In this document: positions 28,455 to 32,185 of the stretch, piece by piece
Layout of the letters: every line of letters starts with the position of its first letter
Position numbering within the stretch: position 1 is the stretch's first letter
Source of the DNA: a virus
Lineage: Duplodnaviria > Caudoviricetes
IMG/VR virus record: IMGVR_UViG_3300027899_000800
Span: 1,796-65,795 of that record
Length of the DNA: 64,000 nt
Direction: 5' to 3' (one strand)
Notes under the pieces: model-generated
Seen by the model: the letters and a program-made list of their open reading frames with translations, nothing else
What the model was told of the DNA's origin: nothing
Databases searched by the model: none
Position numbers and translations under genes: made by a program

Positions 28455-28745
28455 ATGAGTAATTTAAAACCATTAAATGGAAACATTGTTATTAAGCCAT
28501 TAGAAGAACAAGAAATGACTTATGGCAATATCGTAATTCCCGATATGGGAAAAGAAAAACCAGAAGTAGGACAGATAATTTCAGTGAGTGATACTTACAA
28601 TTGGCATACAGGTGAGTATGTTAAAAGTAAACTCAAACCTGGACAAACAGTATTGATACCTAAAATGGGAGCAGTATCATTTGGATTAGACGGAGAAGAT
28701 TATTATATAACTAAAGAATCAGAAATATTAGCAGTTTATGAGTAA
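28455..28745 (+). CDS. groES: co-chaperonin GroES
   Basis: LKPLNGNIVIKP, GNIVIPD..KEKP, E.EILAV. Confidence 0.93.
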   Translation: MSNLKPLNGNIVIKPLEEQEMTYGNIVIPDMGKEKPEVGQIISVSDTYNWHTGEYVKSKLKPGQTVLIPKMGAVSFGLDGEDYYITKESEILAVYE

Positions 28746-30408
28746 AATAATAGAATATAACCAAGACGCAAGACAAAAATTAGCTGATGGAGCTAAAAAA
28801 TTATCCGACGCTGTTTCATCAACATTAGGTCCATTTGGTCGTAATGTTATTATTGAGAAAACAAATGAGTTACCTCAATCAACTAAGGATGGAGTTACTG
28901 TAGCTAAATCAATTACTTTAAAAGATCCAATTGAAAATATTGGCGCTGAAATTGTTAAACAAGCAGCTATTAAAGCAGCGAATACAGCTGGTGATGGTAC
29001 AACAACTACTACTTTATTAGCTTATAATTTAATAAATGAAGGTTTAAGTAGTGTTAGAGCAGGTTCAAACGCTGTTGAAATTAAAAAAGGTATTGATGCT
29101 GCTGTTAAACAAGTAGTTAGTGCTTTAAAAGAAAATAGTAAAGATATCTCATCTGAAGACCAATTAAAACAAGTAGCTACAATCTCAGCTAATAATGATG
29201 AATCAACAGGTGAATTAATAGCTACTGCTATTGAGAAAGTAGGTAGAGAAGGAGTTGTTGCTATTGAGGAAAGTAAAACAGGTGAAACATCACTTGAAGT
29301 AGTTGAAGGTATACAATTTGATAAAGGTTATAAATCACCTTATTTTGTTACTAACAATAATACAATGCAATCTGTATTAGAAGATCCATTTATATTAATT
29401 TATGATGGTCGTATAACAACAGCAGCTGAGTTATTAAATGTACTTCAAAAAGTAAATAGTGAAAATAAATCATTACTTATTGTAGCAGATGATATTGATG
29501 GTGAAGCATTAGCAACTCTTATTGTTAATAAAATGAGAGGTATTGTTAAAGTATGTGCTGTTAAAGCACCTGACTTTGGTGAACGTAAAACATTGTTATT
29601 AGAAGATTTAGCCATCATAACAGGTGGTCAAGTTATATCTAAAGATAAAGGTTTAAAACTAGATAAAATGACTGTAGCTCAGTTATCATCTTATTTAGGT
29701 ATAGCTAGAACAGCAACCATAAGTAAAGAAAAAACAACTATTGTTGATGGTAAAGGAACTGAAGAAGATATATTAACAAGAGCAGAGGAAATTAAAGTAC
29801 AAATTGATAATGCTCAATCATTCTTTGAAAAAGAAAAATTACAAGAACGTTTAGGTAAATTAATTGGTGGAGTAGCTATTATCAATGTAGGTGGCAATAA
29901 TGATATTGAATTAAAAGAATATAAAGATAGAGTTGAAGATGCTTTATTCGCTACACGTGCCGCTGTTGAGGAAGGAATACTACCAGGTGGAGGTGCTGCT
30001 TTATTATATGCTAGAGAAGGTATTAGTTACACTAAAACAGATAGTGATGATTTTAATACTGGTAAAAAAATAGTATATAAAGCATTATCTGCTCCGTTTA
30101 TAAAAATATTATTAAACGCAGGTTATGATAATCCAAGTTGGTATATATATGAATTAGGTAGGACATCATTAGATTTAAATACTGACATATATGATAATAC
30201 GTGGTTAGGATATGATTTAAAGTCTGAAACAATTATTAATATGCTTGATGCTGGTATATTAGATCCAACTAAAGTAGTTCGTTTAGCGGTTGAAAACGCG
30301 GCTGCAGTAGCAGGTACTATATTAACAACTGAAACTGTGATATATGAAGAACCAACCAAAGAAAAGAAAGAAGAGGATGGGATGGGTAATATGATGGGAA
30401 TGATGTAA
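28738..30408 (+). CDS. groEL: chaperonin GroEL
   Basis: TLGPFGRNV, TKDGVTVAK, AGDGTTT, KAPDFG, GILDPTKVVR, GM-rich tail. Confidence 0.97.
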   Translation: MSKIIEYNQDARQKLADGAKKLSDAVSSTLGPFGRNVIIEKTNELPQSTKDGVTVAKSITLKDPIENIGAEIVKQAAIKAANTAGDGTTTTTLLAYNLINEGLSSVRAGSNAVEIKKGIDAAVKQVVSALKENSKDISSEDQLKQVATISANNDESTGELIATAIEKVGREGVVAIEESKTGETSLEVVEGIQFDKGYKSPYFVTNNNTMQSVLEDPFILIYDGRITTAAELLNVLQKVNSENKSLLIVADDIDGEALATLIVNKMRGIVKVCAVKAPDFGERKTLLLEDLAIITGGQVISKDKGLKLDKMTVAQLSSYLGIARTATISKEKTTIVDGKGTEEDILTRAEEIKVQIDNAQSFFEKEKLQERLGKLIGGVAIINVGGNNDIELKEYKDRVEDALFATRAAVEEGILPGGGAALLYAREGISYTKTDSDDFNTGKKIVYKALSAPFIKILLNAGYDNPSWYIYELGRTSLDLNTDIYDNTWLGYDLKSETIINMLDAGILDPTKVVRLAVENAAAVAGTILTTETVIYEEPTKEKKEEDGMGNMMGMM

Positions 30409-30971: not shown

Positions 30972-31128
30972 TGTCAGGTGGTGAAAGGATGTATACATCG
31001 GTAGACACACCCACTCGTCTCGTGGGCGCAGAATTTGAAATAGGTAGATGGATATGGGTTGACCACAAAGCCGGCTATTTTGTTCACTACTGAATCACTG
31101 CGTGGAGGTTCGACTCCTTCCCTGACAG
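30972..31128 (+). ncRNA. 157-nt tRNA-like RNA with an expanded D-loop and a ~76-nt variable region (pseudo-anticodon GTC)
   Basis: Acceptor TGTCAGG/CCTGACA; T-arm GGAGG-TTCGACT-CCTTC; CCCAC-TCGTCTC-GTGGG stem-loop; CGCAG/CTGCG closes the insert. Confidence 0.7.
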
Positions 31129-31188
31129 CAACCCGTCGGAAGCTCATCATGGCCTGAGTGAGATGAAAACGCGGATATCGGGCCTTAT

Positions 31189-31272
31189 GCCTGGATGTTG
31201 GAATGGTATACAAGTTTGACTTAAAATCAAATGAGCTGAAAGCTCGTGTGGGTTCGAGTCCCACTCCAGGTA
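31189..31272 (+). tRNA. tRNA-Leu(UAA)
   Basis: Acceptor GCCTGGA/TCCAGGT, anticodon arm TTTGA-CTTAAAA-TCAAA, long variable arm GAGC-TGAAA-GCTC, T-arm GTGGG-TTCGAGT-CCCAC. Confidence 0.95.
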
Positions 31273-31319
31273 CATATGAAAGATTAGTAGTCTTTAGTAT
31301 CTATCAAATATTTATTGAT

Positions 31320-31736
31320 ATGAATAAAGATATAACTAAACAACAGTTCATTGAAATATGTAATAGAAATTTAACTATGGCTAAAGCAGCTGCTGAGTTA
31401 GGATTACATTTCAATACATTCAAAAAATATGCTATTGAATATAAATGTTATAAACCTAATCAGTCAGGTAAAGGAATAAAGAAAAACATTCCTGAGAGAA
31501 TTTCTAATCTTAATGATTACTCTTCACGATCTAGTGTTCGTAAAGTAGTAATAAATAAGAATCTTATTCCATATGAGTGTAATAATTGTGGAATCACAGA
31601 ATGGGAAGGTCAGAAATTATCTTTACATTTAGATCATATTGATGGTAACAATTGGAATCATGATTTATCTAATTTAAGATTTCTTTGTCCTAATTGCCAT
31701 TCACTGACTGAAACATATACTGGGAGAAATAAATAA
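31320..31736 (+). CDS. free-standing HNH homing endonuclease with N-terminal HTH (true start 31320)
   Basis: CNNC...LHLDHIDGNNWNHDLSNLRFLCPNCHS; inserted between tRNA-Leu and tmRNA. Confidence 0.88.
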   Translation: MNKDITKQQFIEICNRNLTMAKAAAELGLHFNTFKKYAIEYKCYKPNQSGKGIKKNIPERISNLNDYSSRSSVRKVVINKNLIPYECNNCGITEWEGQKLSLHLDHIDGNNWNHDLSNLRFLCPNCHSLTETYTGRNK

Positions 31737-31766: not shown

Positions 31767-32170
31767 GGGGGTAACTGGAATCGATTCATAATCGGAGGGT
31801 AGTATCACATGCAGAGGGAAGGCGTTTAAACCTCTTTAATATCCATGCTAAACAATAACTGACGAAATGTCAACAATGACCTTCGATGACTTGATGTCAT
31901 TCGTAGGCGCCGACTACGCTTTAGCAGCCTAGTCCGCATCGGGTGGTAGAGAACCTAGGAACAGAACACAACAGCGAGTCGTACGCTAAAGAGACGGCAT
32001 CCGGACGCATATTGCGAGCCGTAGTTTTCTCTGTAGTCATAAAACAGAGTGGTGGATTCGGACCATAATCGGTCAGCCCTTACTGATCAAAAGTAATTTA
32101 GATCTAAGCATGTGAGACGTTGGTATTATTGTTCATTATGAAGACGTGGGTTCGAATCCCACTACCTCCA
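31767..32170 (+). ncRNA. ssrA: tmRNA
   Basis: 5' GGGGGTA pairs with 3' TACCTCC(A), including a G3-U70 Ala wobble; T-arm GTGGG-TTCGAAT-CCCAC; tag frame 31861-31932 after ATAACT ends in YALAA*. Confidence 0.93.
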
Positions 32171-32185
32171 CTAAAACACTAAATT

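Follow-up and report, generated by a model that had tools for sequence, protein, structure and literature searches.

Class II tRNAs (tRNA-Leu, tRNA-Ser and bacterial tRNA-Tyr) have a variable arm of about 13–21 nt. Non-proteinogenic tRNAs, for example the cell-wall tRNA-Gly, are aminoacylated and are unused or poorly used in translation. Non-decoding look-alikes of tRNAs are few and most are without an assigned function; that of the T4 species 1 RNA is, to our knowledge, still unknown, a question outstanding since the 1970s. Here we describe a tRNA-shaped RNA gene at positions 30972–31128 (plus strand) of a 64,000-nucleotide stretch of viral DNA, hereafter the window, which makes up most of a 65.8-kb IMG/VR virus record estimated to be 39% complete. 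The phage has a family B DNA polymerase of T4 type, 36% identical to its best match. The element forms a tRNA cloverleaf of class II type, in which the D-loop contains a hairpin and the variable arm is unusually long. It is a real, conserved and non-decoding RNA gene, and its family is common to many large phages and to Chitinophagales bacteria.

Two sets of published recognition rules bear on this RNA. Aspartate identity resides in G73, G34, U35, C36 and C38, with G2-C71 as a minor element; in E. coli, G1-C72 contributes to positioning of the acceptor end in aspartyl-tRNA synthetase (AspRS) (PMC9976931). Bacterial GatCAB amidates aspartate on tRNAs whose first pair is U1-A72, whereas G1-C72 blocks the reaction; a tRNA-Asn with C36 is amidated only two-fold less well, and an extra D-loop nucleotide (U20A, enlarged D-loop) hinders the enzyme (PMC1635274). 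The family combines the Asp anticodon and discriminator set with U1-A72, and in this it looks like a natural tRNA-Asn(C36) that is unfit for decoding. Our best reading, to which we assign a probability of roughly 0.4, is that of a non-decoding acceptor RNA which would be charged by AspRS and probably amidated by GatCAB.

A conserved, non-decoding RNA family in phages and bacteria

The fold is proven by covariation among homologues and not by folding of the single sequence. Taken alone, the window copy folds no better than chance (minimum free energy –48.5 kcal/mol, z –1.40; 23 of 200 shuffles equal it). GroEL-syntenic phage loci supplied the first homologues, with 8 nhmmer matches, and a pattern derived from the most conserved stretch retrieved at least 120 further IMG/VR stretches, from which 77 distinct elements were cut out. 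A covariance model (R1) built from 24 phage elements scores the window copy at 169.6 bits and finds nine more members at 80 bits or above among 78 sources. At E≤1e-12, the 100 pattern loci contained 86 matches to the model. A non-redundant set of 93 sources contained 90, and these yielded an alignment (A3) of 87 distinct phage sequences.

In this alignment, 94.3% of cells are paired and 28 of 32 pairs change on both sides. None of 500 shuffles reached the observed pairing, and slid controls gave 46–55%. Compensatory changes occur in every tRNA helix, in the closing stem of the variable arm and in its long helix; the acceptor, D, anticodon and T stems are each at least 99% paired (covarying pairs are given in Table 1). 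The carriers include complete jumbo phages of 238–321 kb, with one copy each. Together with the bacterial members described below, the family comprises 160 distinct homologues with compensatory changes in every helix, the variable arm included.

An earlier interpretation based on the letters of the window (the sequence-only reading) had described an intact acceptor stem (TGTCAGG/CCTGACA), a canonical T arm, an additional palindrome in the D-loop and a variable region of about 76 nt closed by CGCAG/CTGCG. All of these are present, and the variable region measures exactly 76 nt. The proposed Leu/Ser-type start of the D arm is borne out by a Leu-like D-loop on a 3-bp D stem (GTG/CAC), separated from the anticodon-like arm by A26. 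As for the pairings suggested inside the variable region, GTAG/CTAC belongs to a covarying helix of 8–9 bp, whereas GAAATAG/CTATTTT is paired no more often than in shuffled sequences (57.5% against 58.1%).

Conservation is centred on the acceptor end, the anticodon-like loop and the tRNA body. U1-A72 is found in 86 of 87 phage and all 73 bacterial members, G2-C71 in 83 of 87 and 73 of 73, and G73 in every member of both sets (87 and 73). All phage members and 71 of 73 bacterial members carry G34-U35-C36; the same counts (87/87 and 71/73) hold for a pyrimidine at position 37. C38 is absent from only 5 of 87 phage loops and present in all 73 bacterial ones, and position 33 can be U, C, A or G. 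The tRNA core is kept as invariant columns and consensus: U8, A14, G18G19, U48 and the T-loop U54 U55 C56 R57 A58. Phages and bacteria also share the base of the variable arm, consisting of the closing stem and an internal loop (RRAUAAA / CUAAY or GAAAUAG / UGAAUC).

By contrast, the two inserted modules are the least conserved parts of the RNA, which makes them lineage-specific decorations: the D-loop insert and the palindromic arm tip are additions of the phage lineage. The 87 phage members divide equally into those with no D-loop insert, a short one or a long one (29 each), and the D-loop hairpin is missing from the bacterial consensus. Members without an insert have a D-loop of class II size (11–12 nt), compared with 22 nt in the window copy. 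Perfect palindromes of at least 8 nt make up 16 of the 29 short inserts (4% in shuffles). All 86 phage members with hairpin A in the variable arm also have a perfect palindrome after it, of 15 kinds; shuffles show one in 30% and bacterial copies in 6 of 25 (about chance), although the phage count is somewhat inflated by the fixed GC..GC of the search pattern; the seven members found through GroEL synteny all have an arm-tip palindrome by eye. Since a hairpin needs no self-complementary loop, the palindromes suggest either intermolecular pairing or an insertion process that makes palindromes. The sequence-only reading had viewed the RNA as a tRNA scaffold that presents or releases cargo, and this distribution of conservation does not bear it out.

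Hairpin A itself (motif GGGUWGACCAC) occurs in 86 of 87 phage members, the search pattern having required it, and in 25 of 73 bacterial ones. Its covariation is uninformative because the stem is invariant and only the flanking pair varies (G-C in 49 and U-A in 30 of 86 phage members); the U.G and A-U pairs atop the long helix are present in 86 of 86. We also considered whether the GUC loop might kiss the GAC in hairpin A. Neither element varies, and GUC persists in bacterial copies that lack hairpin A, so the idea was rejected. In bacteria, the length of the distal variable arm lies between about 30 and about 130 nt. In the long D-loop inserts (L080, L083, L089, L096, L125, L185 and others) we noted a hairpin of 6–7 bp whose loop repeats the anticodon-like motif UGUCUCAGUUAUG, so that these RNAs display UGUCUC twice.

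Bacterial members came to light in a pattern scan of a genome collection, in which 3 of the 120 matches listed were true members; the other 117 were chance matches in high-GC genomes. These three lie on contigs of Bacteroidota metagenome-assembled genomes, and the visible titles of two read Chitinophagales and Cytophagales. R1 was then run on one order (titled Chitinophagales), and 61 of the 151 genomes had matches at E≤1e-8. A phylum-wide sample had 15 positives in 151, of which 11 came from the Chitinophagales order sample and one match was of ordinary tRNA size. Many bacterial copies reside on Mb-size contigs, often as tandem arrays of 2–6, and they are not beside tRNA genes. Their alignment (75 matches, 73 distinct, 109–212 nt long) has 95.0% of cells paired, with 21 of 32 pairs changing on both sides. 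One tandem pair (G001 contig C233; L322:1501–1622 and L322:1264–1413, both minus strand, 88 nt apart) illustrates the range: one copy has the GGGGUUGACCACC hairpin and the GCGCGCGC palindrome, and the distal arm of the other is only a plain UUCG-loop hairpin, still with a GGUCUC loop, U1-A72 and G73.

That the RNA is not a decoding tRNA, as had been proposed from its loop without U33 and purine 37, is upheld by the family as a whole. The window copy has C33 and U37, position 33 is free, and a pyrimidine at 37 is nearly universal. Moreover, the phage loci contain 15 canonical tRNA-Asp genes with the loop CUGUCAC alongside the RNA, and such genes were also found in all five carrier bacteria tested.

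ARAGORN calls no tRNA at 30972–31128 and finds only the neighbouring tRNA-Leu(UAA) and a transfer-messenger RNA (tmRNA) further downstream; Rfam 15 finds these two as well and has no match to the element, neither at gathering score nor at E≤10. With BLAST against cultured phages the element was never matched, the matches being to the neighbouring tRNA-Leu and HNH gene. Full-text literature searches, whose coverage excluded supplements and subscription journals, found no paper describing the RNA. The family is thus undescribed so far, with no Rfam family and no paper found. As tRNA finders and Rfam 15 miss it, the RNA goes unannotated in hundreds of phage and bacterial genomes. A weak hint of expression comes from one metatranscriptome, whose contigs cover relatives of the element in part at 85–95% likeness, with DNA carry-over possible and the ends invisible.

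Candidate functions

The family possesses the aspartate identity set G73, G34, U35, C36, C38 and G2-C71, as listed in PMC9976931, and the GatCAB determinant U1-A72 (PMC1635274). If the RNA is an aspartate and asparagine acceptor, its gene would be transcribed together with the phage tRNA cluster. RNase P and 3' enzymes would trim the transcript and CCA would be added as on a tRNA, which is to be expected because the full core is in place (U8, A14, G18G19, U48, T-loop UUCGA and a 7-bp acceptor stem); CCA is not encoded in the window copy, as the bases after G73 are CAA. Host AspRS would then charge the RNA with aspartate, since the invariant G73, G34-U35-C36, C38 and G2-C71 constitute the identity set. 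Less firmly, GatCAB may convert this aspartate to asparagine on the RNA, outside translation. Asparagine would be the likeliest product because U1-A72 is invariant and GatCAB tolerates a GUC anticodon. Three features probably keep the RNA off the ribosome, namely a pyrimidine at 37, an unconstrained position 33 and a variable arm of 76 nt; such exclusion would matter because an Asn-charged GUC tRNA would harm translation. In bacteria, the gene would be controlled by a divergent, amino-acid-sensing AsnC-like regulator. Phages would carry their own single copy as an auxiliary gene inside the tRNA cluster, and in them the D-loop hairpin and the palindromic arm tip might permit the RNA to pair with itself.

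The distribution of the RNA in the 151 genomes of the order is consistent with a link to GatCAB. GatB is encoded in 120 of these genomes, AsnRS in 145–147, GlnRS in 76–77, AsnA in 9 and an AsnB-type synthetase in 137. The RNA is present in 42 of 49 genomes with both GatB and GlnRS, in 19 of 71 with GatB and without GlnRS, and in none of the 31 without GatB. Put the other way, all 61 RNA-positive genomes of the order have GatB, as do three further RNA-positive genomes (3/3). In the class with both GatB and GlnRS, GatCAB is left without an obvious translational job, because AsnRS is near-universal as well. The genomic context of the bacterial copies points in a similar direction: in 41 of 60 loci, the immediate divergent neighbour is one Lrp/AsnC-family protein, and the other flanks differ. 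The best NCBIfam model for this neighbour is AsnC, at 150–168 bits, with the next family at 83 bits or less.

Several observations weigh against this interpretation. The main structural objection is the enlarged D-loop, which concerns amidation and chiefly the window copy; the rule was set on class I tRNAs (PMC1635274) and may not carry over directly to a class II D-loop. With a D-loop of class II size and 12 extra bases in the window copy, amidation of the phage form is doubtful. The G1-C72 of bacterial tRNA-Asp is replaced by U1-A72, and G10 is variable, A10-U25 taking its place in 71 of 73 bacterial members. A class II shape with G73 could also suit seryl-tRNA synthetase. The genomic support has limits of its own. 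The co-occurrence counts stem from the same 151 genomes and ignore phylogeny. The AsnC-like neighbour scores below the AsnC cut-off of 227 bits. E. coli has the classical divergent asnC-asnA pair, and in our sample an AsnC-like gene adjoined asnA in none of the 9 asnA loci. Synthetase genes beside the RNA are at chance level (aspS in 1 of 60 loci, lysS in 1 of 60). We also considered that the RNA replaces asparagine synthetase and rejected this, since its presence is not complementary to AsnA or AsnB-like genes; as 137 of the 151 genomes encode an AsnB-type synthetase, asparagine supply does not depend on the RNA alone. Finally, the window's phage record has no gene for an AsnC-family protein or a class IIb synthetase. 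Three complete jumbo phages likewise have no class IIb synthetase, and one of the three encodes an Asn-synthase domain.

A more specific version of the acceptor reading would make the RNA a dedicated 'cofactor tRNA', that is, an Asp/Asn hybrid charged by AspRS, amidated by GatCAB, kept off the ribosome and switched by an AsnC-like regulator in Chitinophagales, which in T4-like and jumbo phages would serve as an auxiliary metabolic RNA, possibly self-pairing through its two palindromes. Its product would be asparagine or an Asn/Asp donor. We regard this full set of assumptions as rather unlikely to hold together.

Among the alternatives, a tRNA-mimicking regulator or sponge is possible, if doubtful. 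The sequence-only reading had named a host-protein sponge, and this idea survives with AspRS as the obvious candidate. Such an RNA would use its Asp identity nucleotides to bind and modulate or hijack AspRS, or some other protein that recognises tRNAs, and would have no carrier role; as part of the same possibility, the phage palindromes would create a two-fold symmetric RNA dimer fitting a dimeric synthetase. This reading draws on the same identity nucleotides as charging does, tandem arrays of 2–6 bacterial copies suit a titrating RNA, and the palindromes of the arm tip and the short D-loop inserts exceed what a hairpin needs, the tetraloops being themselves self-complementary. However, the acceptor end is open and its G73 and U1-A72 are invariant, which suggests use of the 3' end; the arm-tip count carries the pattern bias mentioned above, and the palindromes cannot be the core function because they are restricted to phages (the 6 of 25 in bacteria being near chance). 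It is distinctly unlikely that the variable arm is the functional part, binding a protein or pairing with a target RNA on a tRNA body that provides only processing and stability, as in the scaffold idea of the sequence-only reading. The arm base is conserved in phages and bacteria, hairpin A is invariant in phage members, and T4 species 1 RNA is an earlier example of a stable RNA framed by a tRNA within a tRNA cluster. Yet the distal arm is the most variable region, no more than 25 of 73 bacterial copies have hairpin A, a plain UUCG hairpin is found in some copies, and the invariant GUC, G73 and U1-A72 would be left unexplained.

An anti-defence decoy, also raised by the sequence-only reading, is improbable. 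In this role it would titrate away a host nuclease that attacks the anticodon of tRNA-Asp or of G34-U35 tRNAs, or take the place of a cleaved tRNA. Three features would suit this: the gene is located among phage tRNA genes, its GUC loop departs from that of tRNA-Asp chiefly at 33 and 37, and the long D-loop inserts of other phage members add a second UGUCUC loop. It fits poorly, however, with homologues on Mb-size chromosomal contigs, in 61 of 151 genomes and beside an AsnC-like regulator, which point to a housekeeping or metabolic role in the host; nor could the RNA stand in for tRNA-Asp in decoding. No nuclease was found in our analysis, and we know of none for this reading. That the element is a decayed pseudo-tRNA, or a tRNA gene broken by an intron or insertion, has almost nothing left in its favour. 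The silence of the tRNA finders and the z score of the single-sequence fold would agree with decay, but the 160 distinct homologues with compensatory changes in all helices refute it, and loss of conservation, which the sequence-only reading had set as grounds for abandoning its idea, is not observed. Splicing of the insert, another of those grounds, does not yield a normal tRNA either: the loop is non-canonical even in members without inserts. An intron-containing tRNA was rejected, as the variable arm covaries within the mature fold and no group I/II intron or ribozyme family matched at E≤10.

The identity marks, the regulator neighbour, the association with GatCAB and the independent carriage by phages make the function directly testable by standard tRNA biochemistry. 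Should the RNA prove to be an amino-acid carrier, it would add an RNA to the auxiliary metabolic genes of phages, and it would give a reason for the 'orphan' GatCAB of bacteria that have both GlnRS and AsnRS.

Genomic surroundings and other phage RNAs

The features of the window copy and its surroundings are compiled in Table 1. The RNA lies between a phage-encoded GroES/GroEL pair and, as the sequence-only reading had stated, a real tRNA-Leu. Relatives of the GroEL with 42–88% identity occur in 76 IMG/VR loci. The listed start of the HNH open reading frame overlaps the tRNA-Leu gene, and its true start is probably further downstream. Related phages (L005, L006) have tmRNAs with similar tags.

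Table 1. Coordinates of the RNA element, its parts and neighbouring features (window positions unless a locus is named)
Feature	Position	Strand	Support or remark
Acceptor stem, 5' strand UGUCAGG	30972–30978	+	All 7 pairs covary, 99.8% paired (phage set)
U8-G9 and D arm: 3-bp stem GUG/CAC, 22-nt loop with A14, A15, G18G19 (GGTAGA)	30979–31008	+	D stem 99.2% paired, 2/3 pairs covary
D-loop insert: perfect 12-nt palindrome/hairpin GATGTATACATC (RNA form GAUGUAUACAUC)	30988–30999	+	Phage-lineage addition
Anticodon-like arm: stem CCCAC/GUGGG, 7-nt loop UCGUCUC	31010–31026	+	5/5 pairs covary, 99.5% paired
Anticodon-position loop TCGTCTC: C33, G34 U35 C36, U37, C38	31015–31021	+	Read from sequence
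Variable arm, closing stem, 5' strand CGCAG	31027–31031 (partner 31098–31102)	+	Helix 4: 3/5 pairs covary
Variable arm, internal loop, 5' side AAUUUGAAAUAG	31032–31043 (opposite 31091–31097)	+	Conserved columns (GAAAUAG / AUAAA types)
Variable arm, long helix, 5' strand GUAG-A-UGGA, with U.G and A-U on top	31044–31054 (partner 31081–31090)	+	Helix 5: 7/7 pairs covary
Hairpin A: U-G-GG-UUGA-CC-(A)-C-A, motif GGGUWGACCAC (tetraloop UWGA, bulged A)	31055–31067	+	Phage and bacterial counts in text
Palindrome AGCCGGCU at variable-arm tip	31069–31076	+	Perfect palindrome after hairpin A in phage members
Variable arm, 3' strands: long helix UUCACUAC, internal loop UGAAUCA, closing stem CUGCG	31083–31102	+	Sequence and covariation
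U48 and T arm GGAGG-UUCGACU-CCUUC	31103–31120 (T arm 31104–31120)	+	T stem 100% paired, 4/5 pairs covary
Acceptor stem, 3' strand CCUGACA, and discriminator G73	31121–31128 (stem 31121–31127, G73 31128)	+	G73 in all members
GroES/GroEL pair, directly upstream of the element	28455–30408	+	Phage-encoded
tRNA-Leu(UAA)	31189–31273		ARAGORN and Rfam 15
HNH homing-endonuclease-like open reading frame, between tRNA-Leu and tmRNA	31203–31736	+	Part with ~73% DNA identity to T4-like coliphage HNH genes
Phage tmRNA, tag DEMSTMTFDDLMSFVGADYALAA	About 31767–32173 (ARAGORN end 32171)	+	ARAGORN and Rfam 15; 81 bits
Other tRNA-framed RNAs	L004:8143–8285, L004:8420–8520, L005:8342–8457, L065:7612–7719, L040:7606–7704, L040:7782–7905		

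A G+C-rich spacer of 56 nt at 31130–31185 (plus strand; ACCCGUCGGAAGCUCAUCAUGG...GGAUAUCGGGCC) leads from the element to tRNA-Leu. Near-identical counterparts are found in L111:1348–1410 and L157:8722–8783, where they are likewise flanked by a tRNA-like 3' end and the following tRNA. The spacer has no Rfam match, and its relatives are covered by RNA-library contigs; it could be another small structured RNA or serve as a processing signal.

The GroEL-syntenic relatives also carry other tRNA-framed RNAs of 99–143 nt that ARAGORN does not call. These have in common the acceptor stem AGUCAGG/CCUGACU, discriminator A, a Leu-like D arm and a normal T arm, and their middle parts are unrelated. This suggests a wider habit of tRNA-scaffolded RNAs in the GroEL-syntenic relatives of the window's phage. 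Across the phage loci L003–L198, ARAGORN reports 492 tRNA genes. Two of these have a CUA anticodon; they are labelled tRNA-Pyl and could be amber suppressors. Several others were called as tRNA-Asn(GUU) with a long arm, at 86–90 nt.

Comparison with tRNAs and tRNA-like RNAs

The phage setting is reminiscent of T4 species 1 RNA (rnaC). In both cases, the gene for the stable RNA sits in a phage tRNA cluster beside a homing-endonuclease gene, and both RNAs have a canonical T arm and paired ends; at 139 nt, rnaC is also of comparable size (~140 nt). However, rnaC has no recognisable D arm or anticodon arm. R1 scores it at 16.6 bits (E 0.064) over only 92 of its 139 nt, and homology with T4 rnaC or rnaD was rejected.

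Like the bacterial Y RNA YrlA, the phage RNA is non-coding and has a tRNA-like domain; YrlA features tertiary contacts between D- and T-loops and is handled by tRNA enzymes (PMC4201824). In YrlA, however, the Ro60-binding helix is built from the ends of the RNA, and a closed stem-loop takes the place of the 'acceptor' (PMC4201824), whereas the acceptor end of the phage RNA is open. Its ends form the acceptor stem and it has no Rfam match, which places it outside the YrlA RNAs. A tmRNA was rejected too, as the element has an anticodon-like arm and ARAGORN and Rfam call only the true tmRNA listed in Table 1.

The Bacillus cereus tRNA-Other (mentioned in PMC5389517) is a further tRNA-like molecule that is aminoacylated and has little or no use in translation. 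It and the cell-wall tRNA-Gly differ from the phage RNA in their amino-acid identity, normal size and lack of a giant variable arm. We know of no phage-encoded copies of either.

In overall architecture, the RNA agrees with class II tRNAs. It has the 7-bp acceptor stem, the 3-bp D stem, the Leu-like D-loop UGGUGAAA..GGUAGACAC, the 5-bp anticodon stem with a 7-nt loop, a helical variable arm leaving at the same exit, the canonical T arm and the core nucleotides U8, A14, G18G19 and U48. It differs from them in its variable arm of 76 nt (~30–130 nt across the family) and in having neither U33 nor purine 37, and the Rfam tRNA model (RF00005) gives it no score. When compared with tRNA-Leu, the neighbouring one included, its discriminator is G instead of A.

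On the level of identity nucleotides, the closest counterparts are found elsewhere. With tRNA-Asp the RNA shares G73, G34-U35, C36 and C38 (PMC9976931), and with the tRNA-Asn of bacteria that use GatCAB it shares U1-A72 (PMC1635274). The tRNA-Asp/tRNA-Asn transamidosome pair is set apart from it by decoding, whereas the RNA is non-decoding, of class II shape and equipped with an enlarged D-loop, an antideterminant in the system tested in PMC1635274. In sequence, the RNA appears as a natural version of the engineered tRNA-Asn(C36) or tRNA-Asp(U1-A72) substrates.

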